A stretch of 64,000 nucleotides of DNA from Candidatus Omnitrophota bacterium (GCA_026416665.1 JAOAET010000044.1:2491-66490), one strand, 5' to 3'; positions 3,001 to 30,663 are shown, numbered from the stretch's first letter. The notes: generated by a model not told the origin, from the sequence alone. Numbers and translations: made by a program.

Positions 3001-4326
3001 GTAAGCGTCATCAGGTAAAATTCCCTTTAATTCTTCTAGTGGCATCCCCCAAGCTTCTTTTTCTTCAATCGTAGGTGGATTCTGGGCATAGAACTTTTCT
3101 GAATGTAATACGTCAGCAATACCACCATCTTTTTGTTCATTATCTGTTTTTATCCCAGGATTATTTTTATTTTCCAATAAGGAAATTTTTTCTTCCGGAC
3201 TTAATTCTACGAGTTGCTCTGTAGACGGAAATAAAATTCTTGGGATCTTTATAACATTTACTTTTTCTAAGCTTAAGCTATTAAATATTTGTCTTCCATC
3301 AAATCCACCACTAAAATATCTTTGAACAACTACGCCATGAGGACTGCTAATTAATTCCTCTTTATCATACTCACCTTTCAGAAAAGAACTACGGTACATA
3401 TTAAAATAATAAAACTTCGACCATGGCTGTAAAGAAGTAAGTCCATTTAAATCTTTACTGTCTATTAAAGCCGCCAATTTTGTGTGAGAGTTGAGGTATT
3501 TTTGCTTATACCACTGTGCTAGAATAAGAGAATAATAAACTTGCCGAAGTTGTGCATATCTTTTGCTAGAATTAACTATTCTTGTTAATTTGGGAATAAT
3601 TATTTCGCGAACTAAGTTGCTGGCATACTCATTTAATACCTTTTGACGGCAGTCTCCAGAAACATTTACGGTTGAATTCTGTATTTCCTCAAGATAATCT
3701 TGTTCTAACATTACTTTAAGCGTTGCCTTATAGATATACACGCCATCCCTATTCTGGCCGAGAATAATTTCTCCCGGTACTATCCATGGGCGGATATAAG
3801 TAGGTATTTCTATTTCCGTCTCTTCTCCAAATAACTCATTGATCTTACGATAAAGTCTATCCCAATACGTGCGACCTTCATGACAGTTAGGAGAAGTTAG
3901 AAAAGCCATGTCTTTTTTCAATTGTAAGTCGGCCTCTAGTAAAATCTTACCAATATCTGTTCTTTCCAAATAATAGTCAATAATATTTTGGGTATCATCC
4001 GGCCTTAAATTCACCCAAAACGCACTATTTGGTAAAACTAACCCAATTTTGAAGTAGTTAAATAAGATTTTGCTTGTTTCCGCAATCTCTTCTTGTGAAA
4101 CTTGTTCGGAATTCCCCTTATCTATACTTAATCTAAAACTATTTTCTTTCGGGTTATAACTCAAAAATCGCAAGTGCAGAGGACGAAAGTTTTCTCCTTC
4201 TAATACCTGCTGTAAATAATAAGGAATTGAAATAGAAGGAATAACCTGAGCAAATCCTACTGAATTAACAATCTGTCCGAATATTAGACTAACCACCAAC
4301 AAAACAGATAGAACTTTTCTCAACAT
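1..4326 (-). CDS. Large secreted hypothetical protein, N-terminal 1442 aa only; the 3' end lies beyond the window start. It begins MLRKVLSVLLVVSLIFGQIVNSVGFAQV (Sec signal peptide). Its C-terminal region in the window carries a Gly-rich motif and a DDG motif, faintly CofD/YvcK-like.
   Basis: I translated the minus strand by hand from the ATG at 4326-4324 down to position 1 and met no stop. The ORF track shows no competing minus-strand ORF in 1-4330, which fits an edge-truncated ORF the track excluded. The N-terminus is hydrophobic; I recognised no catalytic motif. Confidence 0.6.
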   Translation of the reverse strand, partial: MLRKVLSVLLVVSLIFGQIVNSVGFAQVIPSISIPYYLQQVLEGENFRPLHLRFLSYNPKENSFRLSIDKGNSEQVSQEEIAETSKILFNYFKIGLVLPNSAFWVNLRPDDTQNIIDYYLERTDIGKILLEADLQLKKDMAFLTSPNCHEGRTYWDRLYRKINELFGEETEIEIPTYIRPWIVPGEIILGQNRDGVYIYKATLKVMLEQDYLEEIQNSTVNVSGDCRQKVLNEYASNLVREIIIPKLTRIVNSSKRYAQLRQVYYSLILAQWYKQKYLNSHTKLAALIDSKDLNGLTSLQPWSKFYYFNMYRSSFLKGEYDKEELISSPHGVVVQRYFSGGFDGRQIFNSLSLEKVNVIKIPRILFPSTEQLVELSPEEKISLLENKNNPGIKTDNEQKDGGIADVLHSEKFYAQNPPTIEEKEAWGMPLEELKGILPDDAYQQLRKKKVKYVGTIVRASGLSAEENDNIKTTKEGYPEVDDLTSYVGEDSLNVLVYKEAEEILGKIIMKEQKDKGYSHHQMPFYVKLLFLKGKPVIWVGLKDKVDIKEVITEIEKLNKLREKIYMPLYKKVKEIRSKSADSNFPDRVSKELNEFANKFLKEENDSVSAQEMKKSIEILSNNGYDEKKLLEYYLELVDKFCNGYLHRIEVGKENYKDVNLYIRSGIIHAAGEGLSLQLHIPNRDIFSKKEQQIEAIKNRARLEKDEAWITGENFLIKDKNGKTIGFWVVEPQQTSNKTITVLYRDLEREFNKDEFDKIGKPIIQKNDELFKDTEGNPLRGQALYEYLSNYHKKEANFTYEIISIPSGESKEVSPAWYGPTIIAPISGTISYEKNGKKEEIDLSDALIMPASRTTSLKLENGTEKEAKFIRIFRTNPLSIDSEKDIRDILKDIAKGKYEEVNHDDLERLQILLGQKINLKYWEEKQVIEKNAITLTTDENEMLKSKNDKYPLGSYLSKKDIEKSIGIAEEEGKPGFYWRGYETQEKLEETILQELIYNKKLLETTPVVFYIMNHGFLPVPDGLKKLTENGQVTPIHDTVFLQDFLPGSYQTTSTGIGHFQGKNLDIKHVTEGEGIQFNVRYNEEGIIQEVKAQYVSKGSWCYALPGYVDYMVNLGGLRFNDISLKLESKEARQISPYVFWEAEEKISEAITKNKLQAAPYTAGWFYGEIKLFKTTPEAPAITWIKGPDNVMGADKLLSWYKQLNEEEIGKLKKWIIKNIKVSLEQAPEVKKVSNSQTDADSIVAMINFLSSQGFDPKVAGHSLSDKAKKLLSDDFVRFIQDTSVLQNAKDIKTILQAKVSLITGDPLPELVDDEKTAEWLFTAVFDQDNLPKLLKEGTNKGINVVIFRGGRGAADLTTLLNKVDGVNIQIILAGTDDGRSWEIASQDFNATGVPDCGKSLLNLAKNEKLKKFLAARMKGESENLKKDFEEVVEYLSRLSDDNY

Positions 4327-8177: not shown

Positions 8178-9811
8178 GGCAAGATACGGTATCTCTGTTC
8201 CTTTTTAGGAACCCACCAGTCAATAAAGTTGTAGCCAATGCCTATAGAAGCTGGCTCTACCCCTTGAAACCGTTTATGTAAACATAACAAAGCATCCTGA
8301 GAAAACAAAAACATATACGGCTGCTCTTCGTAGATTATCTGATGAATTCTTCTATAACACTGAGCACGCTGGTTTTGATCAAAGGTTCTGCGTGCCTGCT
8401 CCAGTAAATCATCAACCTCTGTATTCTGATAACCTATAAAATTAAACTCTCCTGGTCTGGTCTTTGAGGAATGCCATATATCAAAGATATCTGGCTCCCG
8501 TGGCACTGACCAACCTAATAAAACTGCATCAAAATTCCGCGCATCCACAACTTCATTTAGAAATACACTCCATTCTGCAACTCGGATTTTAACTTTTATT
8601 CCAATATCTTTTAATCGGCGCTGGATAATTTGTGCAACTTTTAGACGCTCTTCGTTTCCTTGATTAGTAACGATGGTAAATTCAAACACCTTTTTGTCTT
8701 TATCCAACCAGCCGTCATTATCAGTGTCTTGCCAACCCAAGTCATTAAGTATTCTCTTGGCTTCTTGGGGATTAAACTCTTTTGGCTTAATATTGTTATT
8801 ATACGCCCAAGATTGCGGCACAAACGGACCAGTACAGATGCTTCCAAAACCTAAAAGCACCATATCAATAATCTCTTTTTTATCTACTGCTAGATTAAGG
8901 GCCTGACGAACACGTACATCGTTAAAAAGTGGTCTTCTTAGATTATAACCTAGATAGGTATAATTAAAACCGGGTAGTCTAAACTTTCGGTAGTATTTCT
9001 TAAAGAAATTAGTATCGGTCTGACGGCTGAATTGAAGGGGAGATAATCCCGAGGTATCTATTGCCTGCGTCTGTAACTCCAAAAAAATAGTTGAACTATC
9101 AGGAATAACCCTGGTTATACTGCGACTAATAAATGGTTTATGTTCAAAATAATCTTCGTTAGCGATTAATTCAATTTTTTCTTGTGTCTTCCACTTCTTT
9201 AATTTGTAAGGACCAGTCCCAATAGGATGGCGGCTAAATGAGGTATTGTTTATGTCTTGTTTTTCTAAAATATGTTTAGGGATAATAGACATTCCCCAAC
9301 TAGCAAGTCCAGGAGCAAAAGGTTGTTTATACCTTATTTTTACCGTGTATTTATCAATTATCTCTAACGACTCTATCTCCTTAAAATCACCACTATAAGG
9401 AGTTCTAACTTGCGGGTCAATTAACTTTTCAAAAGTAAATTTTACATCTTCTGCAGTAAACTCTACACCATCATGCCAACGCACACCTTTTCTTAGATAA
9501 AAAATAATCACCCGACCACCTTCAGATATATCCCATTTTTCTGCCAAATCTCCTACTAAATTGATGTCTTTATCGTATTTAACCAGCCCATTAAAAATTA
9601 AGCTGGTTATGTCAGAAGAGGCAGAATCCGAGGCCAAAATAGGCATTAATGTGCGAGCATCAGCAATAGAGGCACTAACAATAGCATCACCGTAATCTAC
9701 TGCTTCTGCAGTGCCGAATAAAAACAAAAGCGCTACCAGTAATGCTGGTAGCGTATATTGAAGCAAATTTTTATCTTTCATTTTTTGCGCTGCTTTTTTA
9801 ATGTGCAGCAT
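8174..9811 (-). CDS. oppA: Peptide ABC transporter substrate-binding protein (SBP family 5, OppA-like). The likely true start is the internal Met at ~9781 (MKDKNLL...), which gives a K-rich signal peptide.
   Basis: 545-aa ORF with a signal peptide (LPALLVALLFLFGTAEA) and SBP_bac_5-type sequence. It is the first gene of oppABCDF. Confidence 0.8.
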   Translation of the reverse strand: MLHIKKAAQKMKDKNLLQYTLPALLVALLFLFGTAEAVDYGDAIVSASIADARTLMPILASDSASSDITSLIFNGLVKYDKDINLVGDLAEKWDISEGGRVIIFYLRKGVRWHDGVEFTAEDVKFTFEKLIDPQVRTPYSGDFKEIESLEIIDKYTVKIRYKQPFAPGLASWGMSIIPKHILEKQDINNTSFSRHPIGTGPYKLKKWKTQEKIELIANEDYFEHKPFISRSITRVIPDSSTIFLELQTQAIDTSGLSPLQFSRQTDTNFFKKYYRKFRLPGFNYTYLGYNLRRPLFNDVRVRQALNLAVDKKEIIDMVLLGFGSICTGPFVPQSWAYNNNIKPKEFNPQEAKRILNDLGWQDTDNDGWLDKDKKVFEFTIVTNQGNEERLKVAQIIQRRLKDIGIKVKIRVAEWSVFLNEVVDARNFDAVLLGWSVPREPDIFDIWHSSKTRPGEFNFIGYQNTEVDDLLEQARRTFDQNQRAQCYRRIHQIIYEEQPYMFLFSQDALLCLHKRFQGVEPASIGIGYNFIDWWVPKKEQRYRILP

Positions 9812-9857: not shown

Positions 9858-10301
9858 CTAATTTTGATTCGGCACCTGCTGATTTGCTTTCATTGGATTA
9901 CCTGGTGAAGAAGTAGCAGTCTTGGTTGCATTAATTTCTTGATTTCCTTGCGTTACATTACCAGTCGTAGTGGTTGGAACAGAAGATTGGGGCTTCTCTG
10001 TCCTTTGTGGTTGCACGTCAGTTGCGTTTTGAGTAGTTATAATCTTCTGTGGCTTAACTGAACGCATCAAGGATCTGCTTTCCCGTAGGGACAAAAATGC
10101 AAGATTCAAACAACTTAAAAAGAACAAAACTGCCAACACAGAAGTAAGTTTTGAAAGAAATGTGCTTGTCTTTGTCCCTAACATTGACTCAAGTCCTGAA
10201 AACGCCTCTACAAAACCTCCACCCCTGCCCCGCTGAACTAAGATAATTGCAATAAGGATAATACAAACCAAGACGTGAAAAGTTACTGCTAAAGCCATCA
10301 T
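9858..10301 (-). CDS. secG: Preprotein translocase subunit SecG with an extended T/Q/N-rich C-terminal tail
   Basis: 147-aa ORF with two TM helices and the SecG signature LVQRGRGGGF. It follows tpiA immediately, with a 4-nt overlap. Confidence 0.75.
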   Translation of the reverse strand: MMALAVTFHVLVCIILIAIILVQRGRGGGFVEAFSGLESMLGTKTSTFLSKLTSVLAVLFFLSCLNLAFLSLRESRSLMRSVKPQKIITTQNATDVQPQRTEKPQSSVPTTTTGNVTQGNQEINATKTATSSPGNPMKANQQVPNQN

Positions 10302-12333: not shown

Positions 12334-12601
12334 ATTTGCCCCCCTTTGCCTATAATCTTTTTAAGAGAAAATAATATATACTATTTTATTGAAGTTGTCA
12401 AAGATTTTCCTATCATACGCATAAAACTAAATTCCCACAAACAATCTCGTTATTAAACTTAATTCTATTTTCACCAAGAAAAATAATGGCAAAAATTGTG
12501 GAGATTTATTTAACTTATTCTTATGGGTGATTAACTTAAGAGAGAAATTAGCTTACCTAACTACAAGAGATTTTTTGCTAGTGATTAATAACCATATAAA
12601 A

Positions 12602-15600
12602 TTACTGTCTTATATCCCAGTTAACATTGCCGCCCAAATCTTGGGAACGAATGGCAATGATGGTTTTGCCGTCTGCCTGGTGGGAATAGCCAATTTTTAA
12701 ATAAGAAAGGGTTGTTTGCGGAGCACTCAGATACCACATCATTTCAGGAACAATTGGTGCAAGTTCAATAAGCCGACCTGCTGAACCTGACACATTAAAA
12801 CCTGTAGTTATTGTATGCGGTGCAGACGCAGAAGCAGCGGAAAAAGATAATTTCTTTACCCCAGGACCAGCGTTTAAGTAGGCAGTAACCAGACGGTCAA
12901 CAAATGCCACTCCACCTTCATAGGTGTTAGTAATAGTCAAGATATTAAAACTGCTTCCTCCTGACCTTACTGTCTGGGTTTGAGTACTGGAATTAAGAAT
13001 TACCTTGCCTGTACCAGGATCAAACAAACCACCAAGATTAGTCCAGTTCCCTGAGACAGTAAGAGTATAAGAACCAGCACGAAGTATAGCATTTTCTTCA
13101 ATAATCAAATTCCCTGCGATAAAGGTATTACCACTTAACCAATAATTTGCCTGATACCTATTTGAGATGGTTAAATTTGTATAATTGGTTGAGGCAAGAT
13201 AAATATTAATGGTTGCAGTCTGATTAACTAAAGTTCCAGTTATTACGATTTGAATTACCGGCCCGACTTGCGAGCCAGCAAGCACACGAATTTGTTCTAC
13301 TGCACTGACGGTAAAATCGCCTTTACCCAACTGACCATTAGCGTTATTACCGCAATTAAATACTGGTCGTGCCTGACTTAAGGCAACAGTCTGTGCACCA
13401 CCTGCTGCTATAGCCACAATATCGTGAAGATAAGTTTCACTTCCTTGTTCTCCTGCCAAAACTTTGACTGGGGTATATCTATTTATGGTGGTTCCATCAC
13501 CAAGTTGACCCCAAGGTTCATTGTTAGGACCTTGGTTTTGCCCCCAACTATAAACATAACCACCGTCAGCAATTGCTAAACTGTGTGCACCACCTGCTGC
13601 TATATCAGTAACATTTCTTAAATAAGTACCTCCTTGTACTCCTGCCAAGACTCGAACAGCAGTTAAACGCGTAAAAGTAGTCCCGTCCCCTAACTGACCA
13701 TAGTTATTATATCCCCAGCTAAAAACATAACCGTCTGAAGAAAGTGCTAAACTGTGTGAATCGCCTGCAGAGATTCGTGTTATATTATGTAAGTAAGTAC
13801 CTGCTCCTTGTTCACCAGAAAGCACTCTGACCGCTGTTGCACTATTTATAGTTGATCCATTTCCTAACTGTCCGTCTTCATTAAATCCCCAAGCATAAAC
13901 ATAACCATCAGTTGTAAGCGCAAGCATATGCGCACCACCTACAGCAACTGTTGCTATATCGTGTAGATATGTGCCACCTCCTTGTTCACCAGAAAGAACT
14001 TGCACAGGATAATAACTATCTTGGGTTGTTCCATTACCTAACTCTCCTTCACCGTTGTAACCCCAGGTATAAACGAAACCTGTTGAGGATACAGCTGCAC
14101 TATTAAAACCACCGGCTGCTATCTTTGAGATATTACTAAGCACCCCCTCGTTATTTAATCCATGCACCTGAACTGGGGTTGCACTATTTTCCGTTGAGCC
14201 GTTACCTAACTGACCAAACTCATTATATCCCCAAGCAAATACTGTTCCATCTTCTGCCAAGGCGATACTGTGATAACCACCTGCTGCTATGCGAATAATA
14301 TTATGTAAATAGGTTCCTCCTCCCTGCTCACCCGAAAGTACCTGCACAGGTCTTGAGGCATCATCAGTTGTGTTATCCCCTAATTGACCAAAGAAATTGC
14401 ATCCCCAAGCAAAGACATAACCGTCTTGGGTTAACGCAATAGTGTGATCATAACCTGAAGCAATTGCTCGGATATTAACCAGATAACTCTTCCATACCAA
14501 ATTCCAAGTAGTAGCATTTCCTGCCTGCAAGGTGTGATTAAATTTTACTTCTAGTGTTCCATTTACATTTATCGTATTTGTTCCTGTCTTGGTAGTTGTA
14601 GCTACTGTTGAACCATCACCAAAGGTAAGATTAAAAAAGTTCCAGGCATTAGATGAACCGCCAAAGTTACCTGTACCTTGTACAGTAAATGTGCCACCGG
14701 TTACATTGATAATCCCTACGCCAGAGCTGGTGACACTGCCTCCTTTTACGGTGATGTTGTAATCGCTAGCAAGAGTACCTACATCAACCTGTAAGACATT
14801 ATTAATCACTACTGGCCCAGCAAATGTCTTTGTTCCCGTAGCATTAATAATTACCTTATAAAAATCACGACCATTACCCGTTCCACCAGTATCAACGGTT
14901 GCTGAACTACCGCTAAAAATCACTGTACTTGTTCCGCAATTGAAAGTAGCTTTGTTTAACCAATCACCACTTACTGTTAAGGTATTATTTGTCAAAGTAA
15001 GCGCACCAGCTAAAATAGATACACTTCCTTCAAAATTAACTGTACCACTAAAAGTCAAAGTACCTGTGCCTAACTTATCCAAACTTCCTGCTCCACCGCC
15101 ACCAGTATCAGTAAAAGTATTTGAAATAATCGTGTTTCCTGTTCCATCAACAGTTAAACGATATCCACCATTGTTTATGGTTCCAGAAAGACTAAGCTGT
15201 GCCCCTTTTACTTCAATAGTGCTTGTTCCTGTCATAGTAATAGCACCAGCAAAACTACTTGTGCCCGTGCTACAAATAAGCTTACTGTCTGCAGCTAAAA
15301 TAAGCGGCTCAGTGGTAGAATAACTAACATTACGAAAATCAATGGTTGCATTATTTACCGTGGTATTACCAGCATTTGTGCCAAGGGCGTTATTTACCGT
15401 TACTGCTAATGTGCCTCCATTAATTACATTTGCTCCTGTATAAGTATTATTGCCACTTAATACTAAAGTCCCTAAACCTGCCTTAGTAATACCAAAACCA
15501 GTGCCACTAATCACTACGCTAATAGTTAAGTCATCATTTGCACTGCCGTCTTCAACAGTTATAACTCGCGATGCACCCAAAGCAATACTTCCACTACTAG

Positions 15601-18600
15601 AAGTGGTTATTGTAGAACCCACTGCCCCCAGACCATTGACAAACAAATTAATGCTACCTGCACCTGTAGAAAGAAGTGTCAAGGTGCCTGCTCCCAAAAC
15701 AACATCCGCAGCGTTAGTGCTTCCGCTATAGAGATTTAAAGTAGTAATAGTCAAAGCAACATTCCCTAAGGTAAAAGTAGCGTTCGGTGCAACTGTAATT
15801 ACACTGGTGTTGGCAATAGCATTGGCAAGGTTTATGGTTAAGCCACCTTCGTTAATAGTAGTAACTGCTGTGTAACTTTTAACTGCTCCGTAGTAACTGG
15901 CAGCACTTGTTGGAAATTCTACTGTACCTGAACCACTAATAGTTAAACCACCTGAACCAGCAATAGCTGGAGATATATAAAATGAACCTATAGCAAAAAT
16001 AATTCCTTCGGCATAACCAAATTGTAAAATACGAGAAGTGCTTGAAGCAGTGGCTCCAATATTACCTGTAGAAACTCGACCAACTGCACCTGAAGTAACC
16101 GTTAATGTACAGTTTGCACTGTAACTTAAGTCTGCACCGTTAATTAAAATAGAGTTAATCGTTACACTACTTGCGGCATTAGTAGCAGAAGTAATTCTTA
16201 CATTTGTGCCTGCGGTCAAGGTGTTTTGAGTATATTCTGTAGCAAGGTCAAGTAGACGAATTCCATTACTGTTAGGCCCATTATCTGTTATATTTATGTT
16301 ATAAGTGACAAATCCTGTACCTAAACCACTTACAGAATTATCTCCAAAGGCATAAGGAACAATCGGCTTGTTCGTCGCAGAGGTATTTGCACCGACCAAA
16401 TATAAACCTGAGGGATCAACAAAAATAATATTGGTGTTTCCTGCTGCAGGGTTGCTACCTATATTATTACCTCTAAACAACACAGTAGCTCCTGTATCTC
16501 TTGTAATCGCACCAAAAGTAAGAACAGTTGAACCACCTGTTCCTGAAAAGACCGTTACCTTAGAAGCTCCTTGTGCGACTTCCAGCATTCCAATAGTTTC
16601 CGCGGCATTGGTAGCAGATACATTGGTTCCCTTGAACACAAATTCTCCACCTCTTAGAATAATAGAACTACTGTTGCCAATACGGTTGGTGTTGTTGGCA
16701 GCGCTATTGTCAACAATTACACTACCACTAGAATTTATAACAAAAGACACACAATTAAGGGCAGTGCCATTACTTCCGGATAAAGTAAGTGTTCCTCTGT
16801 TAATAGTGGTAGTGCCCAAATAGCTATTAACACCAGTTAAAGTAAGCGAACCGGCGTTTACCGTAAGGTCTGCCACAAAAGAATTGTTACCTCCAAGAAG
16901 AAGCGAGCCATCACCATCTTTTATTAAAGAACCTTCACCAGTAATAATTCCGTTATAAGTAAGGGTAGTTCCTGTATCGGTGTATATGGTTCCTGTTCCT
17001 GATAAAAAAATTCCCCGATTAGCGTTTAAGGTAAAAGAAGAACTTGTTCTTAGTGTTCCAGCAAAAAGATTAAGGTAACTGTCACCTGTACCTGCTCCTA
17101 GTGCTTGGTCTTCAGATATTCTAATAATTGCCTCAGTTATTCTAATACCACCAGTAAAGTTATTTGTAGAGTTGCTTAAGGTGACTAATCCTGCACCTGC
17201 TACTGTTAATCCACCACTTCCTGTTATCTGACTTGAAATATTAAGGTTTCCTAAGGCGTAGATAACCGCAGAACTTGTCCCAAATGCCAGAACTGTAGAG
17301 GCATTTATTCCTGCATTTCCTTCTAGGGCTAAGACATTTCCGCTGGTAATTGTTAAGGTATAGGAAGAATTAGCTATAGCTGCTGAGGAAGTAAGAATAA
17401 GAGAATTGATAGTGATATTGGCAACCGGTGCAACTGCAGAGGTAAGCTTTACATTAGCATTAGGAACAGATAGACTTGTAGCATACTCGTTGCTATAGCC
17501 GCCGCTGTTTAACAGTCGCAAACCAAAAGGATTGTCATCAAAATTATAAGTTACCATATCCGTAGCAGCAGAGGACAAAGAATCGCTACCAAAGGCACCT
17601 TTAATGATACTTACAGTTGGTGTCCCTGCAGCGCCACCTGCGCCACTTAAAACAGGTGCATTAGTAAACATAATGGTAGCCACATTCGCCCCTGAAGCAC
17701 TACCTAAGTTTTTACCACGAAAAACCACTATTGCGCCTTCGGTGCGTGCTAAAGAGGCAAAGGTAATTACTGTTGCTCCTTTTGTAGAATCCCTGACGTT
17801 CACATAGTTAAGCCCAGACTGAATCTGAAGCGGTCCAACGGTTTCAAAAACAGCAGAGGTATTTGAACCAATAAGTGTGAAACTACCTCCATACATCTTA
17901 ATAGTGGCAGTATCGGCAATACGGTTTAAGTTACTGGCTGAACTATTATCAAGAATTAATGTCGCCTCATCATGGATGGTAAAAGAAGTAGAATCAAGTG
18001 CTGAGCCATTTGCTGCACTAAAAACTAAAGTGCCTTGTTTGACAGTTGTTTCACCAGAATAAGTATTTACACCCTGCAATATTAGAGTGCCTTGACCGTG
18101 TTTTTCTAGAGAATTTGCTCCCGCAATAACACCGGCGTAAGTTAAAGTAGTACCTGGCTCTACATAAATAGCACCTGTTTTTGATAGCAAAATTCCTCGG
18201 TTTGCATTTAAAGTAAAATCTGATAGAGTTCTCAGTGAACCACCATTTAAAATAAGGTGACTTGGCGTTGGTGTTACCGGAGCTGTCCCTAAACCGCTAT
18301 CTGCCTTAATCTTTAAGGCCCCTTCATTTATTATGGTTGTTCCGGTGTAAGTGTTGACAGCAGTAAAAAACCAAGTGCCAGAACCATTTTTTACTACACT
18401 GGTTACTCCTGTTCCATTATCAGTAATAACCGGGCTAAACACACCAGAACCTGTTCCCGTAAATATTAAGGTTCTAGATACGTTTGTACCACTTAAATTA
18501 ATGGAAGTTCCTGTGAAAGTAAGAGTTCCTTCTCCTGAAACATCTAGGGTAGTTCCAGAAGTTCCGACAGTAAAAAGTCTATCCGTAGAGGTGGACGGAC

Positions 18601-21600
18601 CAGTATATTTAAATGTTCCTGCATTTAATACAAGGTTAGTTGCAGCGTTAGAAGAGGCACCAATACTACTTGCAACTCCACCATTACGTAATATTGTAGT
18701 AACCATTGTACCCTCATTAACAGTTGTAACACCAGTGTAGGTATTAGCTGCATCCAGTGTCCATATTCCTATCCCATTTTTTGTAATGGAACCCGTAGTA
18801 ATAGCAATTACTCCACTTCTAAAGATTCCTTCTCCTGAACCATCTAGAATCAAGTTGTAAGTAGAACCAGTGACACCTCCAGTAAAAATAATCGGACCAG
18901 TTCCATCTGCGACAATAGTAACCCCTGAACCAGTCAAAGTGATACTACGATCAGTAGTTCCACCTGTTCCGATGTATCTAAGCACAGTTGAAGCAGCCAT
19001 ACTAATTGCAGAGGTGCCAGTTCCTAAAGAACTGGCTGAACCTGTGTTAGCCAAACTGTTTACCACTACCGTGCCTGCGTTAATAGTTACAGCACCAGTA
19101 AAAGTATTTAATCCCGTCAAAGTTAAGGTCCCATTTCCTGCTTTTGTAAGTCCACCTGCTCCACTAATTACTGCAGAAATTGTCAAACCGTCTGTAGAGT
19201 TAGTCAAAGTAAATGTCCTGGTTGCAGCCATAATGAGATTGCCACTAATCAAAGCATTGCTACTGCCACCAGTAGATGTAACATTTCCGTTTAATTGTAA
19301 ACTTCCTTGCCCTGTGGCCACTACTCCACCACCATTTGGACCGCTATTGATAGCCAGAGAAGTAACTGTCAAAGTAGCGCCATTACCACTGCAACGAACA
19401 ATGCCTCCATCATTTACGGTAAGCGCACCAATAGTATCTGAGAAACTGTTCCAGTCAAATACTGCACCGTTATTTACCGTCACATTTCCAGAAGACAATG
19501 TATCTGTTATGCCGTAAAGCAGTTTACCTGCATTTATTGCGGTAAGTCCAGTATAAGTATTTGCTTTGGAAAGTAACAAGGTTCCTGTGCCTTCTTTGGT
19601 AACACCATAACCTGTTCCACTTATTACTACCGCAATGGTTAAATCGTTTTCTGCTAATCCATCGGCAACAGTTACTGTTCTTGAAGCACTAAGGGCTATA
19701 CTACCAGTGCTTGCTGTGTAAATTGTTGAACCTACTGCCCCAGTCCCATTTAAGTTTACAGTTATATTCCCACCAAGGGTTAAAGCATTAATACCCAAAA
19801 CTACCTGAGCACCTGCAGTATTGCCACTATACAGATTTAGGGAAGCAATTGTCAAGGATACATCGCCTTTAGTAAAAGTAGCAGGAGCTGCAACGGTGAT
19901 AACGCTAGAGGTAGCAATACCACTGGCAAGGTTAACAGTTAATCCGCCTTCATTTATCGTAGTCGTTCCAGTGTAGGTCTTGGCAGCAGCATTAGAAGAA
20001 GGAAAAGTAACTGTGCCTCCTCCACTGATAGTAATTCCAGCTGTGCCAGAGATAACTGGAGCAAAATTAAATGACCCAATTGCCCAGATTACGCCTTCAA
20101 CATTACCAAACGCTAGAATACGGGAGGTAGCAGTAGAGCTTGCAATATCACCATTAGAAACTCTGGCAACCGCACCTGAGGAAACAGTTAAAGTACGAGT
20201 ATTGGTATTAAAAGTCAGTGTATTTCCGTCTATGAGCAGCGAGTTGATTGTAGCGTTCGTAGTAAAATTGGTAGCAACAGTAATCCGTACATTAGTGTTC
20301 GTAGTAAAAGCATTCTGGGTGTATTCAGTAGTTAGGTTCAGCGGTCTGATTCCATTGGTATTACCATTAGTGTCCACATTGTGGGTGACAAAACTTATTC
20401 CCGTGCCTGTGGCAGAGGTATCACCAAAAGCATAAGGGATGATGTTAATACTAGTAGTTCCGGCAGCGCCTCCTGCGCCCGTAAGGTTTAAACCTGCGGC
20501 ATTAGTGAAACGGATATTTGTGTTGCCTGCTTGAGGGTTTGCTCCAAGATTGGTTCCGCGAAAAAGCACAGTGGCTCCTGCGCTTCGGGAAGCGCCCGCA
20601 AAAGTGAGAATGGTTTGTCCACCTGTGCCAGAGAAAACCGTTACTTTGGACGCTCCAGAAGGAAGAGTTAACATACCCACTATCTCAGTGGCATTAGTAG
20701 AAGGCGTGTTTGTTCCGCGAAAGATAAGTTCTCCACCACTAAGAGTAAAGGCGTTAGAATCACTTAAACGGTTTGTGTTGTTAGTGCCACTGGTTGAGTT
20801 ATCTAAGTTCAGGATAGCACCTTGATTAACAATAAAAGTTGCACTGGTCATTGTGCCATTGGCACCGCTTAAAGTAAATATTCCCCCGTTTAAGGTAACG
20901 GTAGAAGAATTAGTGTTTACCCCCTGCAAAACAATTTCTCCGCCACCACGCTTCTCTAAAGGATTTGCACCTGCAATTACACCTGCATAAGTAAGCACAG
21001 TTGAACTGGTAACATCGATAATTCCACCACCAGAGGAAAGTGCAATACCACGGTTGGCATTAAGGGTAAAACTTGCAGTAGTTAAAAGTGTTCCTCCACC
21101 AAAAGTAAGATGGCCTGGAGTAGCTGAAGCAGGAGGTTGTCCTAAAGCTGAATCAGCCCAGATACGTAATGTCCCTGAATTAATAGTGGTTGCTCCCTGA
21201 TAGGTGTTTGTTGCACCTAAAACTAAAGTCCCCTGACCTTGCTTAATAAGTCCTCTGCCTGCACTGCCACTTATCACGCCACTTATGGTCAATGTCTCGT
21301 TACTATTAGTTACTGTAACTGTCCTTGTTTCTGATAAAGTAATATTTAAACTTATGGTATTTGTTCCACCACTTATATTAGTGGTAATTCCTCCTGCACC
21401 AAGAGTAATTGGATTTCCTGCCAGAGTATAACCGCTTCCAGTAATAGTAATAGAATTAAAACTTGTGTTTGCAGTCAAATCATTATAGGTATTTAATCTA
21501 GAAACCCCTGAAGGAAAAACAAGGTCATCTCCTGCGCCAGGAGTTGCACCACCTAATCCTGTCCAGTTTCCCGCAACTGACCAAAATTCACTGATTGCAC

Positions 21601-23935
21601 CTGTCCAAGTAGCAGTAGGATCCCAGTTATAACAATTACCCCGATTAGTAGATTCAGTCATCTTTACGATAAGTGAATTAAGATTATAGGAGTCCTCAAC
21701 CCAAGTATAAGTAATCAGCCGAACCCCTTTGGGGTCAATATACCAGTATTTTCCTTTCTCTTGCGAAAGTAACTTTATGTGTTTACCATAGGCACCTTCT
21801 AATTCCAAGATGTTCATAATAGTGGTAACCGAACCAGGCTCAAAAAGAAGTTCTTTAGAAGGGCTGGTACAAGTTAAGTTATAAAAACTATTATTTCCAA
21901 AAATAAAAGATGGTCTTGTAGAATCAAAAAATATAACTGTTGACTTCCCTGCCTCAAAAATTCCACCAGTATTTATCCAGCTACCGGCTATGGAAAGTAG
22001 CTGGTTTGTCGCTTGCAAACAGCCGCTACTAAGCAAAATATCTCCATTTATCGCAAGCGAGCGACCAAGAGTAATTATTCCACGATAACCATCAATTACT
22101 AAACCTGCTATTTGGTCTTTGAAATTAGGGTCAACAAAAGAATCTTTGTGAGAGTTTAAAGTAGAAAGGCCGTTAAAGAAAACTACATCAAATGCACTGG
22201 GAACAGTACCCGTATCCCAGTTTGCAGGATCTGACCAAAAATAAGTTTCTCCTTCTCCGATCCAGGAGATTCTAATATCAACATTAGTGTTATTACCAAC
22301 AGAAGTTGAATGCCTTACAATAAGAGGTGGTCCACGTGCATTAAAACAATCTCCAATCTGTGCATAAGCAATATCTGTATCTGCCAAAGGTAAGATTTTC
22401 CATTGTTTACCCGGCTCAGTAGAGACTAAGGTTACAAGATTAGCATAACAACCTTGAATGGTCAAACTTCCCATTACAGTAACTGTCTTGTCTGCCTCTA
22501 CCGTAATCTTTTTTCCTGGAGCGATCACTTGCAAGTTATAAAAAACATTATCTCCACTGATGATACTGGGAAGTTCAGAAATAAATTCCACTGATGACTG
22601 TTGAGCATTAAAATTACCAAAATTAACCCAGTTACGCGCAATATGATAAATGGAATTAGCAGCGTTTAGAGTAACACCCTGACCAATAATTAAAGAACCA
22701 CCTGCAGTTAAATGCGAACCATAATACTGGGTAAAATATGCAGGTTGTGCAGATTGTTTTAAAATGATATCGCCAGCACTATTAACATTGGCAAGTAAAC
22801 CTTTGCCCGAGCTTTGGATAAGAATGTTACCAAACCCACAAGTAGAAATGGTAGTACCTATTGCCTGCAAAAAAGACCCAATTCCATCAAAATCAGCATC
22901 GGCTAAAAATGATAAATTCCCGTTTACTGTGGTAACATCAGCATAAACTTCCACATTCTTGTTTGCTTTAAGTTCAGTATTACCAAATGTTTTCAATTCT
23001 CTATCAATTTTTATAGTCTGACCCGAAAATACTTCTATATTTCCTCTTCGAGCATCTAAGATTCCTGAGATCTCTACATTACGGTTGGCTTTAATTTTTA
23101 TTTTACCACCTTCTTCTACTAAAGTACTGGCTTTTACGATGCCTTTTTGATTAACTGCCTTTTCAAAAATCTGCTCAGCAACTTGGGCGGTCATATACAC
23201 TTGGTGGGCTTCAATTGTTGCTGTATTTAAAACTGCTTCGTTTAGTGGTTTACCATCAAAACCAAATACCTGATTTATAGTTTCTGCGTTAACCTCAAGT
23301 TGGATAAGACCTTTTGTGTCAAAACTAATAGTAACTTTGTTACCTGAAGCAAGTTGCACCGAACCCGCCTGTGCAAAAATAAAACCGTGGTTTTGAACAG
23401 CACTGCCTACTAAAGCAACATTACTTGCTGTAATTTTGCCCTGATTAAGAATTGCCGAAAAGACATTGCTATTTTCAAGAATGTAATTTGCGTTAAGAAA
23501 ATTATTAGTAGCAATATCTAACGTAGAAGCAACTAAGGTTTCTACATGAACCTGCGAAGTAGGGCTAAAACATATACCTTGGGGGTTTATTAAAAAAAGC
23601 GTTCCATTTGCGCTTAAAATTCCTGCAATTTCAGTAGGACTTTGACCTATTACCCGACTTAAAACTCTTGCGTTTTCTGATGGTTGAATAAAATGTACTG
23701 CTTCATTTGAAGCAATGGAGAAAGAATTGAAATTAATTACACAACCATCATCAGCAAAAATTCTCAAAGTAAAAATATTATTGGTAGTTGCAGGGTCTGG
23801 CCGTTCAAAAGTGGCACTGCCATACTCCACTGACTCACCTTCTGGCAGACAATTACCCGAGTGTGCTGTTAGCACTACTAACAGAATAGTCAAAATATTA
23901 AGTAGAACTAACTTTCGTTTTCTTTTAGGTTTCAT
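12602..23935 (-). CDS. Giant two-partner-secretion exoprotein (TpsA), 3777 aa. It has a signal peptide, a TPS (hemagglutination-activity) secretion domain, beta-helical PATR-rich modules, a 7-bladed RCC1 beta-propeller and a ~215-aa C-terminal domain of unknown function.
   Basis: Single 11,334-nt ORF. Residues ~40-140 match the TPS domain consensus (...[19 protein letters not shown]...[32 protein letters not shown]...VASTLDI). The cognate TpsB gene lies immediately upstream. Confidence 0.85.
   Translation of the reverse strand: [3777 protein letters not shown]
13301..14455 (-). repeat. Seven RCC1-type repeats (aa ~3161-3545) forming a predicted 7-bladed beta-propeller near the TpsA C-terminus
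   Basis: Seven ~55-aa blades, each with AAGG.HSLAL..DG.V..WG.N..GQLG (e.g. [46 protein letters not shown]...WGQLG). Confidence 0.75.
15386..21568 (-). repeat. Three tandem, diverged protein-level modules within tpsA (aa ~790-2850; the middle copy is partial). Each is anchored by ...[10 protein letters not shown]... and holds several PATR units (G.GTL.L.G.NTYTG.T.IN.GTL).
   Basis: TLNANRGI recurs at aa ~957, ~1908 and ~2302 (DNA ~21067, ~18214, ~17032) with collinear flanking similarity. The DNA copies are only ~65-75% identical: ACCCTTAATGCCAACCGTGGT vs ACTTTAAATGCAAACCGAGGA vs ACCTTAAACGCTAATCGGGGA. Confidence 0.6.
23036..23848 (-). other. TPS secretion domain of TpsA (aa ~30-300), FhaB/ShlA/HMW1 Haemagg_act-type
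   Basis: Conserved NPNG-like motif (NPQG) preceded by SANGTLFLI and followed by VASTLDI; hydrophobic signal peptide aa 1-27. Confidence 0.8.
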
Positions 23936-24225
23936 TTTATTTTTAAAATAAAAAATCCAGGCAAAGCCTGGTTTGTTGCATAGTCACTTCGGTAGCCTGC
24001 CTCTGCCCTAAGCCGCACGGCTTTGCGCGAACTACTTAAAAAGTAGCCTTGCCCTTTCGGTTGCTATGCTTGATATTATAATATGATTTTTTCTTTAATT
24101 CAAGTATAACATATATTTATATAGAATACCATCTTATACAAGATAAAATTTTAATTATATTATGTTGGGTCTTTGCGTTTAGCTACAATAGGTTAAGAAA
24201 AGTAACTTAAGTTCTGCAAGGTCTT

Positions 24226-25974
24226 TTATAATTCAAAGTGTAAACTAAAATGGAAGGTAGAAGACCCTTGGCTAGGGCTGGGACGATCACCAACGTGTTC
24301 TGCCCAATCAAGCCGTAAGAAAAAATTGCGGTTAAATTGGAAACGCAAACCCATTCCTGCTGCCGCTAAAAACTTTTGGGACTTTTCTACTTCGTCAGTA
24401 TGCTTTAGTTTTCCCGCACCTATATCACAAAAAATCAGTGGTTGTAACTGGTTACGTAAAGGCATACGTGCACCTTTTAATCGAATGTCATCAGGAATAA
24501 AAGGGAAAAAGAACAACCATTCTAAGTTAAGATATGCTCCTATGTCTGCTAAGTAATCACCTTCGGGATATCCTCTTACTGAATAAACACCCCCTAATTG
24601 AAATTGTTCTGAAGAAGGTAAAGTTCGGCTGGCCCATTGTGCTTTTGAACGCAACCATAAATATGTCTGTGCAGAAGTCTTTTGAACCCTCTGTAACGAC
24701 TGCTCATACTTGAGAAAACTACCTGCCGAAGAGGGCCTACTTGCGCTGGCGTGACCGCGTTCTGAAGCGCCCAAAATATCTTCTAGACTTACTGTCAATC
24801 GTGGTGAAAAACTAGTTTGCCCCCCTGGCCCAAAACGGTCAATCTTTGATAAATCTAGTGAAAAAAACAAAAGGCGCAATTGGTCATTAATAGTAGTTTC
24901 TTTTTGTTCTTTTTTCTTTACTGAGACAATGTCCATACCTACATCAAAATACCCTTCGGTTTCGGCAGTAAGAATGATTTCCTTTGTAATATGCGGTGTG
25001 CCTATTCGTGTGGAAGAAGTAATATCCTGATAACGATACTCCTTGCCAACTTTACTGTCAAACACCGTTAAATCTAAACCCGCTCTTGTTCCATAGGAAT
25101 CAGTAGGAAAAACATAACTTACAAAATAACCTTTGGCATCTTTAGACGACATTACATTGAAAGCGCAAGAATCAAATTTTCCAGTTAGGTTTGTGCTTCG
25201 CGCAAAAAAAGAACGACGATACTTACCACTTAAACGCGTTCCATGATTATCAAAACTTGTTCCTATATGATAAGGAAATTGCTCTTTTACTTTTAAAGTA
25301 ATATCGGTTGTCTGAGGTTGTTGCCCTGAACTTAAAACAGCAGTAACTTCTAAATCAGGATTTTGATTTAACCTTAGTAGATCTTGCTGCAGGGTGAAAA
25401 CATTAAGTAACTGGTTTTCTTTTAGATGGATATATTTTCTAATGAGAGCAGAAGAAAACCATCTGTCTGCCTCAATGGTTATTTTACCTAATTTGCCTTC
25501 AATGACTCTTAATTCTATTCTACCCTCAATAACATCCTGTTCTGGAATATAAACGTCTGTGGTTAAATACCCTTTTTTTCTATACAGGGCCTTTATCTGC
25601 TCAACTATCTCTTCTAATTCACTAAAAGTTACTTCTTTTCCTAAGTATTTTTCATAGTTAGGATAAAAATCTTCCTTTGAAAAAATAGTAGAGCCAGTGA
25701 TGATTACTTCTTTAAGAAGAAAAACTACCCCCTCCTTTTTCAGGACAGGTCTTTCTTCAACCTTAATTGACGGGCTCATCGGTTTTTCTCTCTCAATACG
25801 TTTCTTTTCTTCTTCAATCTCTTTTTTAAAACGGCTTGCCTCTGACCCTGCTTTTGTTGAGACAGGTAAATTTTGCGCAATTACTGGACAAGAAAAAAAA
25901 CTGAAAATAAGAAAGCCGACAATTAATATATTTTTGGTGTAACTATTTCTAAACCAAATAAGTGTTTGAGACAT
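24226..25974 (-). CDS. TpsB outer-membrane transporter of the two-partner secretion system (ShlB/FhaC/HecB family; POTRA domains plus a 16-strand beta-barrel)
   Basis: 582-aa ORF with a signal peptide (FLIFSFFSCPVIAQ), a POTRA-like region (GRIELRVIEGKLGKI) and a beta-barrel ending in an aromatic residue (...FHFSLHFEL). It sits directly upstream of and co-oriented with tpsA. Confidence 0.8.
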   Translation of the reverse strand: MSQTLIWFRNSYTKNILIVGFLIFSFFSCPVIAQNLPVSTKAGSEASRFKKEIEEEKKRIEREKPMSPSIKVEERPVLKKEGVVFLLKEVIITGSTIFSKEDFYPNYEKYLGKEVTFSELEEIVEQIKALYRKKGYLTTDVYIPEQDVIEGRIELRVIEGKLGKITIEADRWFSSALIRKYIHLKENQLLNVFTLQQDLLRLNQNPDLEVTAVLSSGQQPQTTDITLKVKEQFPYHIGTSFDNHGTRLSGKYRRSFFARSTNLTGKFDSCAFNVMSSKDAKGYFVSYVFPTDSYGTRAGLDLTVFDSKVGKEYRYQDITSSTRIGTPHITKEIILTAETEGYFDVGMDIVSVKKKEQKETTINDQLRLLFFSLDLSKIDRFGPGGQTSFSPRLTVSLEDILGASERGHASASRPSSAGSFLKYEQSLQRVQKTSAQTYLWLRSKAQWASRTLPSSEQFQLGGVYSVRGYPEGDYLADIGAYLNLEWLFFFPFIPDDIRLKGARMPLRNQLQPLIFCDIGAGKLKHTDEVEKSQKFLAAAGMGLRFQFNRNFFLRLDWAEHVGDRPSPSQGSSTFHFSLHFEL

Positions 25975-28773: not shown

Positions 28774-30663
28774 TTATCCTTGTTCTTTTTTTAAAGTCAC
28801 AATTGCCTCTCGCAAAAGACGACAATAAAGGTCAAACCCTACGGCATTGACAAAACCGTGTTGTTCTTCTCCTAGTAAATTACCTGCACCGCGAATCTGT
28901 AGATCCTCCATGGCTATTTTAAAACCTGCACCCAGTTGCGCATAATCTTGTATAGCAGACAGTCTTCTCCGAGCAACGGTAGAAAGGGTCTCCGCAGGTG
29001 GCGTTAAAAAATAAGCGTATGCTGAACGGTTAAACCTGCCAACCCTTCCCCGTAATTGGTGTAAATCCGATAAGCCAAAAGTATGAGCATTGTTGACAAT
29101 AATGGTATTTGCATTAGGTATATCTATCCCTGACTCTATAATCATTGTGCAAACAAAAACGTCAACCTTACCTGCCAAAAAATCTGCCATTACCGCCTCT
29201 AATTGCCGACTTGGCATCTTACCATGTCCAATAGCAATACGGCTATCTTCAGGGCTAAGACGTTTAACTATCTGAGCAATCTTCTCAATATCTTCAATGC
29301 AATTGTGTAAAAAGAAAACTTGACCTTTTCTTTTTAACTCGCGGGCTATGGCTTGACGAATAATTTCCTCATCATATTCTACCACGACTGTTTTAATGGG
29401 CAATCTATTTTCTGGAGGTGTATTTATTACAGAGAGATCTTTTGCTCCCATCAAACTCATATAAAGGGTTCTGGGAATAGGGGTTGCTGTCAAAGTTAAT
29501 ACATCGGTGGTTAAACGTAATTGCTTTAATTTCTCCTTTGCCCGAACTCCAAAACGTTGCTCTTCATCAATAATGACTAATCCCAAATCTTTAAAAACAA
29601 CATCGTCAGAAAGTAATCTGTGTGTTCCAATCACGATATCAACTTTACCCTCAGCAACACGCTTTAAAATATCCTGTTGTTGTTGTTGTGTCCTAAAACG
29701 GGAAAGCATTTCTACAAATATGGGAAAATCTTTTAGTCGGTTGATAAAATTATGATAATGCTGTTCTGCCAAAATAGTAGTAGGGACAAGGTAAGCAACT
29801 TGCTTTTTATCTAAAACCGCCTTAAAAGCAGCACGCATAGCCACCTCAGTTTTGCCATAACCAACGTCTCCACACAAAAGACGATCCATAGGTTTTGGCT
29901 TCTGCATATCCTCTTTAACCTGTAAGGTTGCGGTAATCTGGTCAGGGGTCTCTGTAAAGGGAAAACTCTTTTCAAATGCCTGTTGCAATTCATTGTCTTC
30001 GGAGAAAGCAAATCCTTTTGCGCTCATCCTTAGTGCCTGCAGAGATAAAAGCTCCCAGGCAAGTTTCTGAATACCCTTTTTTGCTTTATTTTTAATGCGT
30101 TGCCACTCTAATGAACCTAAACGGTTTAACTTTGGTCGGCGTGTTTGGAAAGCAATATATTTCTGCACAAGATGCATTGAGGTAATTGGCACATACAACT
30201 TTTCCTTACCCTCATACTCAATAACCAGATTATCAACATACTTATCGCCAAGTTTTACCTTCTGCATTCCCAGAAACCGACCAATTCCGTAATCAGTATG
30301 CACTACATAGTCTCCCACTGAGATATCCACGAAACTTTCTAAAGGATAACGTTCACTAAAGGTAGTGCGTCTAAAAGAAGAGACCTTTCTAAAAGGAAGA
30401 ATAATAACCATCTGATGAGCCCAAAGTAAACGGCCATCTTGGTAATCAAATGTCCTTATACTAGATATTTTGTCGTTATCAATCTCAATACGGATAGGTA
30501 GTTCAAAAGTATAAGCAAAGATATCAATTACCCCCCCACGCACAGCAAAATCCCCTTCTTCTACCACCTGCGTATGTCTTTGGTAAGAAAAACCCACCAA
30601 GTCCTCACTAAGTTCCTGAGGCTGTATAGTCTGACCCACATATAACTTTAGTGATTTAAACAT
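28774..30663 (-). CDS. mfd: Transcription-repair coupling factor, short form (629 aa). It has the RNAP-interacting CarD/TRCF domain plus both translocase RecA-like domains, but lacks the N-terminal UvrB-homology module (D1a/D2) and the C-terminal D7.
   Basis: CarD_TRCF motif DYVVHTDYGIGRFLG...EGKEKLYVPI, helicase motifs GDVGYGKTEVA, DEEQRFGV and TATPIPRTL, and a TRG-like region. Only 113 nt separate its start from the secDF stop, so no upstream coding space exists. Confidence 0.75.
   Translation of the reverse strand: MFKSLKLYVGQTIQPQELSEDLVGFSYQRHTQVVEEGDFAVRGGVIDIFAYTFELPIRIEIDNDKISSIRTFDYQDGRLLWAHQMVIILPFRKVSSFRRTTFSERYPLESFVDISVGDYVVHTDYGIGRFLGMQKVKLGDKYVDNLVIEYEGKEKLYVPITSMHLVQKYIAFQTRRPKLNRLGSLEWQRIKNKAKKGIQKLAWELLSLQALRMSAKGFAFSEDNELQQAFEKSFPFTETPDQITATLQVKEDMQKPKPMDRLLCGDVGYGKTEVAMRAAFKAVLDKKQVAYLVPTTILAEQHYHNFINRLKDFPIFVEMLSRFRTQQQQQDILKRVAEGKVDIVIGTHRLLSDDVVFKDLGLVIIDEEQRFGVRAKEKLKQLRLTTDVLTLTATPIPRTLYMSLMGAKDLSVINTPPENRLPIKTVVVEYDEEIIRQAIARELKRKGQVFFLHNCIEDIEKIAQIVKRLSPEDSRIAIGHGKMPSRQLEAVMADFLAGKVDVFVCTMIIESGIDIPNANTIIVNNAHTFGLSDLHQLRGRVGRFNRSAYAYFLTPPAETLSTVARRRLSAIQDYAQLGAGFKIAMEDLQIRGAGNLLGEEQHGFVNAVGFDLYCRLLREAIVTLKKEQG

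Follow-up and report, generated by a model that had tools for sequence, protein, structure and literature searches.

A two-partner secretion locus of Candidatus Omnitrophota with a PATR- and RCC1-containing exoprotein and a putative cyclic di-GMP riboswitch

How do Omnitrophota, uncultured and often ultra-small bacteria suspected of being host-dependent or predatory, export their giant surface proteins and control their production? This open question is raised by two adjacent genes, tpsB and tpsA, in a stretch of 64,000 nucleotides (nt) from Candidatus Omnitrophota bacterium (GCA_026416665.1 JAOAET010000044.1:2491-66490), which we call the window. Its source is an uncultured metagenome-assembled genome (MAG), known from sequence and prediction alone. 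Both open reading frames (ORFs) are on the minus strand; tpsB encodes 582 amino acids (aa) and tpsA 3777, with a spacer of 290 bp between them. By the domains and motifs of TpsB, the N-terminal domain of TpsA and the adjacency of the two genes, the locus is assigned to the type Vb, or two-partner secretion (TPS), class. TpsA is probably a fibrous adhesin that is exported by this route, carries an RCC1 propeller as its binding head and is controlled by cyclic di-GMP (c-di-GMP).

The exporter and its passenger

The coding features of the locus are as follows, with residues numbered along TpsA.

24226-25974, minus strand: tpsB, an Omp85-family TpsB of 582 aa, with signal peptide, charged N-terminal segment, POTRA domains and ShlB-type barrel
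12602-23935, minus strand: tpsA, ORF for the 3777-aa exoprotein, coding sequence including the stop codon
23849-23935, minus strand: Sec-type signal peptide, aa 1-29, read from the sequence (MKPKRKRKLVLL...AHSGNC/LPEG cleavage)
23036-23848, minus strand: TPS domain, aa 30-300, with NPQG at aa 117 and VASTLDI at aa 135 (PF05860, TIGR01901)
21476-22723, minus strand: two tandem modules of about 190 aa, aa 405-598 and 620-820, 36% identical in self-comparison
15236-21478, minus strand: PATR-bearing beta-helix shaft, aa 820-2900 (nine PF12951 and ten TIGR02601 stretches)
Within the shaft, minus strand: supermodules A1 (aa 820-1500), an extra segment (1501-1759), A2 (1760-2159) and A3 (2160-2900), from self-comparison
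14549-15235, minus strand: beta-rich segment before the propeller, aa 2901-3129, with a partial module copy at 2966-3034 (hidden Markov model (HMM) match, 7e-6)
13241-14548, minus strand: seven-bladed RCC1-like propeller, aa 3130-3565 (PF25390, PF00415, PF13540)
12605-13240, minus strand: C-terminal module, aa 3566-3777, predicted right-handed parallel beta-helix at the end of the protein (homologous copy 3602-3777)

TpsB matched the Pfam families POTRA_2 (PF08479, 2.9e-19) and ShlB (PF03865, 1.5e-19), both above cut-off, and Omp85 (1.7e-11). The closest solved structure in a PDB search was CdiB (7e-17); FhaC was matched at 8.5e-6. The VRGY motif of loop L6 and the (F/G)xDxG motif of the barrel are conserved and significant features of TpsB proteins, and were found at aa 466 and, as FCDIG (FxDxG), at aa 515 of TpsB. 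An earlier note on this DNA had placed a TpsB gene directly upstream of a single large ORF, and both ORFs proved to be exact. Related loci (L labels) were collected by a TPS-alignment scan of GTDB species genomes, which gave 32 loci, nearly all from Omnitrophota. A tpsB gene lies upstream of tpsA in 17 of them, at 41-51% identity in 15 and about 24% in two.

The signal peptide of TpsA leads into a mature start, (A)LP(Q/E)G, that is conserved in TpsA homologues. It is followed by the TPS domain, the element recognised by the POTRA domain of TpsB. This domain, which had been read from its NPQG and VASTLDI motifs, was matched by TIGR01901 (6e-20, 70.9 bits against a cut-off of 29.1) and by PF05860 (1.3e-21, 78 bits against 33.5) when the N-terminal 774 aa were scanned alone; PF05860 was unlisted in the Pfam scan of the whole protein. 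A TPS profile matched the structures of EtpA (6e-46), HMW1 (1e-34) and HxuA (2e-29) in the PDB, and the domain is therefore placed in an EtpA/HMW1-like subtype. A conserved linker (aa 301-404) joins it to the first module pair.

A type Va autotransporter was ruled out, because TpsA has no C-terminal 12-strand barrel and its C-terminal 212 aa model as a beta-helix; Pfam and NCBIfam scans of the protein contained no autotransporter barrel (PF03797). The shaft repeats of filamentous hemagglutinin (FHA), PF05594 and PF13332, were likewise absent from the Pfam results at E<=0.01. The product of tpsA is identical to NCBI record MCX7927480.1 and that of tpsB to MCX7927481.1, both on one 81-kb Candidatus Omnitrophota MAG contig. 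MCX7927480.1 is named after an autotransporter-associated repeat and MCX7927481.1 is a "BamA/TamA family outer membrane protein". Neither name shows a two-partner system, and that of TpsA points to the wrong secretion class. We flag this as a database naming problem, as the current names hide the secretion system.

The approximately 3450 residues after the TPS domain are assigned by sequence to beta-helix, made of modules of about 190 aa and PATR supermodules. At least nine PATR units had been counted in the earlier note; PF12951 detected nine stretches (140 bits) and TIGR02601 ten (153 bits), with units near aa 900, 1449, 1600, 1721, 1851, 1947, 2247 and 2820. The shaft had also been described as three tandem modules of about 400-950 aa. 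Self-comparison upheld the duplication, aa 820-1500 aligning with 2160-2870 at 57-60% identity and aa 1760-2160 with 844-1250 at about 45%. The strict tandem arrangement did not survive, as the less similar aa 1500-1760 lie between the first two blocks; nothing colinear with this extra segment of about 260 residues is present in the orthologous loci L001 and L026. Internal DNA repeats are at most 72% identical, which, together with the protein identities of 45-60%, indicates that the duplications are old. Recent tandem duplication and repeat-based phase variation were rejected on the same figures.

The two tandem modules at aa 405-598 and 620-820 were matched by the module HMM at 1e-101 and 3e-103, and the pair is also present in most related TpsAs. 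The C-terminal region of about 215 aa, previously considered motif-less, turned out to be homologous to both of them, and is thus a further copy of a repeated beta-helix module of wide distribution; TpsA contains three full copies and one partial copy. The C-terminal module is most like the beta-helices of adhesins and passengers. No Pfam family covers the module of about 190 aa. In a profile search of 1.84 billion cluster representatives (the source of the proteins with P labels), the module was found in 14,795 proteins, 2,367 of them at E<=1e-30. Many of these are of 3-7.7 thousand amino acids (kAA), with up to 60 matched stretches, and a TPS domain stands at the start of 42 of the 147 best module proteins. 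TpsA passengers are built from a previously unnamed beta-helix module that is common to thousands of giant proteins.

The beta-helical passenger could instead be an extracellular effector that degrades cell walls or polysaccharides, in the manner of a beta-helix lyase or depolymerase. Such an activity would fit the predation hypothesis for Omnitrophota giant proteins, and we consider it improbable.

By its sequence, TpsA has near its end an RCC1 propeller with the full seven blades, which stops 212 residues short of the C-terminus; a complete propeller had also been read in the earlier note. It was matched by PF25390 (318 bits against a cut-off of 150), by six stretches each of PF00415 and PF13540, and by seven [WC]GxN...G[QE]LG blade motifs between aa 3177 and 3537. 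In the PDB it matched UVR8 (6e-57) and, like UVR8 at about 1e-56, the RCC1-like domain (RLD) of HERC2. Bacterial RCC1 propellers are abundant (6903 matches at E<=1e-30) and occur with dockerin, Ig, LPXTG and RHS partners; none of the 120 best short propeller homologues has a TPS domain.

As TPS systems often deliver toxins, and the solved structure closest to TpsB is that of CdiB, the protein might be a toxin delivered in the manner of CdiA or a cytolysin like ShlA. We consider this very improbable. No VENN or pre-toxin motif and no Pfam toxin domain was found in TpsA, nor were FHA-type repeats. Its C-terminus repeats a beta-helix module that also occurs inside the protein, and is 57-58% identical across orthologues rather than polymorphic. 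There is no immunity gene downstream; the longest ORF in the 268-bp spacer between tpsA and pgk has 57 aa. The contact-dependent inhibition toxin and the cytolysin were both rejected on these grounds.

A word-indexed protein search appeared to be blind above about 1450 aa, as it did not return the 3777-aa record itself. Because such an index misses long proteins, architectures were read from fetched loci and from the exhaustive search of representatives. Complete colinear orthologues, 58-70% identical in every segment, are present in L001 (3520-3559 aa, according to the start codon chosen) and L026 (3547 aa), and the TPS-PATR-RCC1 architecture was confirmed by Pfam on the L001 ORF. Further colinear members are P0134 (3482 aa) and P0133 (5712 aa). 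Propeller identity is 68-69% in L001, L026 and P0134, and 65% in P0133. Since the colinear orthologues keep every segment, including the propeller and the C-terminal module, the whole architecture appears to be under selection. The earlier note had known of no described class combining these domains. The searchable literature indeed contained no characterised homologue, but the four orthologues show that the combination is not unique. Two proteins, L006 and P0030, have TPS and PATR without RCC1, and a fragment from a Rhodanobacter-like MAG has TPS and PATR. On sequence grounds, proteins of this architecture form a conserved family, so far uncharacterised, within the modular TpsA repertoire of Omnitrophota, and occur in at least four other assemblies. 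TpsB, a well-understood exporter, is thus paired in Omnitrophota with passengers of 3.5-5.7 kAA.

Two members of the repertoire combine modules in other ways. L018 (159-6119) encodes a TpsA of 1986 aa with a TPS domain, one module of about 190 aa and about 18 RCC1 repeats (three propellers), without PATR; a weak match to the GDPD family lies inside the RCC1 region. L006 (9983-20890) encodes a TpsA of more than 3636 aa with six PATR stretches and a DUF2341 domain near the end.

The leader between tpsB and tpsA

The spacer between the two genes is AT-rich apart from a GC-rich core, and contains a riboswitch-like leader that the earlier note had missed.

24075-24103, minus strand: promoter-like TTGAAT-17-TATAAT, 10 of 12 matches in a consensus scan
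23978-24069, minus strand: c-di-GMP-I-like aptamer (RF01051), core 23988-24063
24064-24069 and 23978-23983, minus strand: aptamer closing helix GCAUAG/CUAUGC, compensatory relative to L001 and L026
23947-23971, minus strand: terminator-like hairpin CCAGGC-UUU-GCCUGG (CCAGGCUUUGCCUGG) with U tract, a putative expression platform, ending 12 nt before the tpsA ATG

Judged by its position, the spacer promoter would start transcription a few bases before the closing helix of the aptamer. In a scan by E-value, RF01051 aligned end to end with 23988-24063 on the minus strand. The same family was found directly upstream of tpsA in 10 of the 32 related loci, at 39-72 bits and so above the gathering score; both full-length orthologous loci are among those that pass (L001 54 bits, L026 52 bits). 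Among 11 aptamers of related loci, which did not include the window copy, compensatory changes were present at 13 of 20 predicted pairs. A covariance model made from these 11, again without the window, gave a single match in the 64 kb, at the same coordinates (30 bits, E about 9e-7, the E-values of home-made RNA models being only roughly calibrated).

The leaders of the window, L001 and L026 align base for base at the junction motifs AGGGCAA, CGCAAAGCC and GGCUACCGAA. The junction nucleotides of the c-di-GMP-I class (GGCAAA, CGCAAAGC and ACC) and the outer helices are present in the window copy. The closing helix is GCAUAG/CUAUGC in the window and AAUUAAC/GUUAAUU in L001, and a hairpin with a U run is also found in the leaders of L001 and L026. 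Spacer matches to STnc50 and BSnc120 were discarded, as they only reflect the terminator hairpin. A promoter-like site of its own, followed by a c-di-GMP-I-type aptamer and a terminator-like hairpin, makes it most likely that production of tpsA would be gated by c-di-GMP at transcription elongation, separately from tpsB.

Concerning the sign of the switch, 8 nt of the aptamer core (GCAAAGCC) are complementary to the terminator (GGCUUUGC), and could form an antiterminator in the ligand-free RNA. Together with the free-standing terminator, this weakly favours an OFF switch. Forming the 8-bp antiterminator would leave the window RNA about 10 kcal/mol above its minimum free energy (MFE) structure.

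Several observations weigh against a c-di-GMP-controlled adhesin with a binding head. The window aptamer scored only 25.7 bits with RF01051, below the gathering score of 35 (E 0.0043 in a search of 361 nt), and with gathering thresholds Rfam gave no match anywhere in the window. The aptamer no longer has a GNRA tetraloop, its second hairpin is largely lost, and it could be a decaying relic. MFE folding of the window aptamer was no better than that of shuffled sequences, and neither L001 nor L026 has kept the proposed antiterminator pairing. At the other end of the system, an AlphaFold2 (AF2) model of the tip (aa 2940-3777) had a predicted local distance difference test (pLDDT) score of 50 and was unusable for the propeller and its junctions. 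Within this otherwise poor model, pLDDT was 73-91 at about aa 2960-3100 (blocks 74-91) and 60-78 on to about 3140. The distal position of the propeller, finally, is borrowed from the FHA model.

The aptamer observations bear on a specific alternative, in which the window aptamer is a relic without function, tpsA being transcribed simply from the promoter in the spacer or together with tpsB. In its favour, the other lineage members score 64-87 bits under the lineage model with which the window scored 30, the tetraloop is lost, the hairpin truncated, and no thermodynamic signal was seen. Yet the junction nucleotides, the compensatory closing helix and the terminator have all been kept, and the element is the sole match of the lineage model in 64 kb. 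The "type 2" form of this aptamer class (GEMM-I) reportedly shows the same joint loss of tetraloop and receptor helix. We regard the relic as a serious contender with the smaller share of the probability, and favour a window element that is a working c-di-GMP sensor.

The window also encodes a GAF-GGDEF diguanylate cyclase (46118-47362, plus strand; GGDEF 8e-47), 20 kb from the leader. Of the window's ORFs of at least 200 aa, no other was confirmed as a gene on the plus strand. Its presence indicates that c-di-GMP signalling exists in this genome. Near the orthologous loci, a gene for an HD-domain protein (PF13487 HD_5/PF01966) possibly encodes a c-di-GMP phosphodiesterase.

Two related loci have leaders of a different form. 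In L006 the aptamer (9922-10001, 72 bits) reaches the start codon, and control in that locus may therefore act on translation instead of transcription. Upstream of a tpsA homologue, L013 has tandem aptamers of the c-di-GMP-I class at 8880-8961 and 9044-9125 (65 and 68 bits); for one of the two, the GGC variant model RF03167 gave the best match.

The proposed fibre and its surroundings

By analogy with FHA/FhaC, HMW1 and EtpA, TpsA would be exported by Sec, recognised through its TPS domain by POTRA and passed through the TpsB barrel. Outside the cell it would fold into a rod, whose length may be put very roughly at 60-70 nm, each beta-helix coil taking up about 22 residues and adding 0.48 nm. 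If the C-terminal end faces outward, as in the model for FHA, the RCC1 propeller and the terminal beta-helix cap would form a distal ligand-binding head. Host or prey cell surfaces and matrix polysaccharides are candidate targets.

A bolder reading is that in Omnitrophota type Vb systems with c-di-GMP riboswitches between tpsB and tpsA form a modular platform for giant fibres with swappable heads, and that the RCC1-tipped fibre of this locus serves a host-dependent or predatory nanobacterium to recognise its partner cell and hold on to it. The heads seen among Omnitrophota TpsAs are the RCC1 propeller, triple propellers and DUF2341. We offer this tentatively, as it is rather unlikely to hold in full; if true, the giant-gene literature on the phylum would gain a route of secretion and a regulatory input that it has so far left out of account.

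The wider context of the pair differs in L001 and L026, where it follows genes for a secretin, a tetratricopeptide repeat (TPR) protein, an AAA_22 protein, an HD-domain protein, a coiled-coil protein and a Wza-like polysaccharide-export protein. These belong to a conserved block upstream of tpsB-tpsA (L001 119-8003; L026 1-5435, partly cut by the contig start), consisting of the secretin, the TPR protein, an unknown protein of 195 aa, the AAA_22 ATPase, the HD_5/HD protein, a coiled-coil protein of 559 aa and the Wza-like Poly_export/SLBB protein. The block may be a surface-assembly neighbourhood.

This neighbourhood bears on the possibility that the fibre is a biofilm or matrix scaffold that tethers the cell's own exopolysaccharide, with the propeller as glycan-binding head. 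The model would be CdrA/CdrB of Pseudomonas aeruginosa, a c-di-GMP-regulated TPS adhesin. Riboswitch control would match the c-di-GMP control of CdrAB, and in L001 and L026 the Poly_export and SLBB gene is directly upstream of tpsB, with the secretin and HD-domain genes nearby. However, the polysaccharide-export neighbourhood is absent from the window, there is no similarity to CdrA beyond the TPS domain and the beta-helix class, and polysaccharide binding by the propeller is a supposition. An OFF-type switch would also be opposite to the regulation of CdrA. We consider a scaffold unlikely, and retain the c-di-GMP-controlled adhesin.

In the window, the locus is flanked on one side by an oppA-like gene, secG, tpiA and pgk, and on the other by rsmA, pdxA, a gene for a SurA-like peptidyl-prolyl isomerase, and mfd. 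The earlier note had it wedged between core operons of a streamlined genome. The flanking genes are as described, but insertion could not be upheld: the arrangement was seen in this genome only, and the region upstream of pgk varies. In relatives with Pgk 64-77% identical, pgk-tpiA-secG(-oppA) is kept, and upstream of pgk there is the gene gap or an ATP-binding cassette (ABC) transporter; no rsmA-pgk junction was found among the relatives available for comparison. Nor is streamlining established, as the window encodes histidine and tryptophan biosynthesis (his and trp genes), electron transfer flavoprotein (ETF) and the GGDEF cyclase.

The comparison of GC content and codon usage between 12.6-26.0 kb and the flanks, which the earlier note had suggested, showed native usage and no sign of recent transfer. 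GC at third codon positions (GC3) is 0.257 in tpsA and 0.278 in tpsB, inside the window range of 0.24-0.33; overall GC is raised through codon position 2, by a composition rich in Gly, Thr, Ser and Ala. In synonymous codon usage, both genes lie no further from the pooled genes than the others do. The locus has neither long DNA repeats nor direct repeats at its flanks. Recent horizontal transfer or insertion was therefore rejected as unsupported, there being native GC3 and codon usage, no flanking repeats and no junction to compare.

Some further features were noted in the window and the related loci. A strong promoter-like site, TTGACA-17-TATATT (12373-12401, minus strand; 11 of 12 matches), lies in the spacer between tpsA and pgk; pgk-tpiA-secG therefore probably has its own promoter, without read-through from tpsA. 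The Mfd homologue (28774-30663, minus strand) has 629 aa, far fewer than the approximately 1150 of a typical Mfd, and matches model positions 294-822 of 907 together with a short UvrB-like stretch. SecG (9858-10301, minus strand; 147 aa) matches a 73-position SecG model over residues 5-71 and has an unexplained C-terminal extension of about 75 residues. Transfer RNA genes are directly upstream of tpsB in L017 (7212-7482) and L019 (7424-7623), and are possible integration hot spots for a TPS cassette there. Intron elements occur on contigs with tpsA homologues, namely group II domains in L005 (1-256) and a group I element in L020 (3421-3681). In L005 the ORF at the start of the tblastn match has only 12 aa, and the gene may be disrupted or in another frame.

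Comparison with known systems

The locus resembles FHA/FhaC of Bordetella in a TpsB with POTRA, barrel and VRGY loop, a TPS domain with an NPNG-type motif, a long beta-helical shaft and, as proposed for TpsA, a functional region at the distal C-terminal end. It differs from FHA in that TpsA has no detected FHA repeats, shows no sign of a C-terminal prodomain and has a TPS domain of the HMW1/EtpA subtype. The closest characterised relatives of that domain belong to the two-partner adhesins EtpA/EtpB of enterotoxigenic Escherichia coli (ETEC) and HMW1/HMW1B of Haemophilus. Unlike those systems, the Omnitrophota locus lacks a glycosyltransferase gene (etpC, hmw1C), and its passenger is 2.4 times longer than EtpA, with PATR and family modules, an RCC1 propeller and riboswitch-like control.

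With the PATR-containing type Va autotransporters, such as IcsA, TpsA shares the same beta-strand repeat of 30-32 residues, here in 9-10 copies; in contrast to them it has no C-terminal barrel, its export partner being the separate TpsB. The seven-bladed RLD is shared with bacterial RCC1-like proteins and is very common in secreted and surface proteins of environmental bacteria, whereas here the propeller sits within a TpsA shaft, close to its end.

The leader resembles the c-di-GMP-I riboswitches Vc2 and Cd1 (RF01051) in its conserved junction motifs, its predicted two-hairpin aptamer, in which the second hairpin is shortened, and the surface or adhesion gene downstream, and like Cd1 it has a putative intrinsic terminator downstream of the aptamer. 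Unlike both, the window copy lacks the tetraloop and receptor and falls below the gathering score. Searchable full-text literature contained nothing relevant linking c-di-GMP riboswitches to two-partner secretion or filamentous hemagglutinin, or c-di-GMP to Omnitrophota, and no riboswitch placed between tpsB and tpsA of a type Vb secretion system was found there.

Like the giant proteins of the same phylum, TpsA is a beta-helix-rich surface protein of several kAA, and secretin genes are neighbours of the orthologous loci; at 3.8 kAA it is small by their standard. The papers on these proteins (West-Roberts et al. 2023 bioRxiv; 2026 bioRxiv complete-genome survey) report up to 38 PATR copies and discuss type II secretion system and type IV pilus neighbourhoods. 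Two-partner secretion, TpsA, Omnitrophota RCC1 and c-di-GMP riboswitches do not appear in them.

Taken by itself, the combination of TPS, PATR and RCC1 is a modest curiosity; more useful leads are offered by the riboswitch that recurs between tpsB and tpsA and by the widespread unnamed module. A c-di-GMP riboswitch precedes the passenger gene alone in one third of the loci sampled, so that a small RNA and a defined ligand offer a testable handle on the deployment of attachment fibres. The closest functional analogue of the proposed system is CdrA, likewise a beta-helical adhesin that leaves the cell by two-partner secretion and is produced under c-di-GMP control; CdrAB differs in its control by a transcription factor, in its gene order, cdrA-cdrB, and in having neither PATR nor RCC1.

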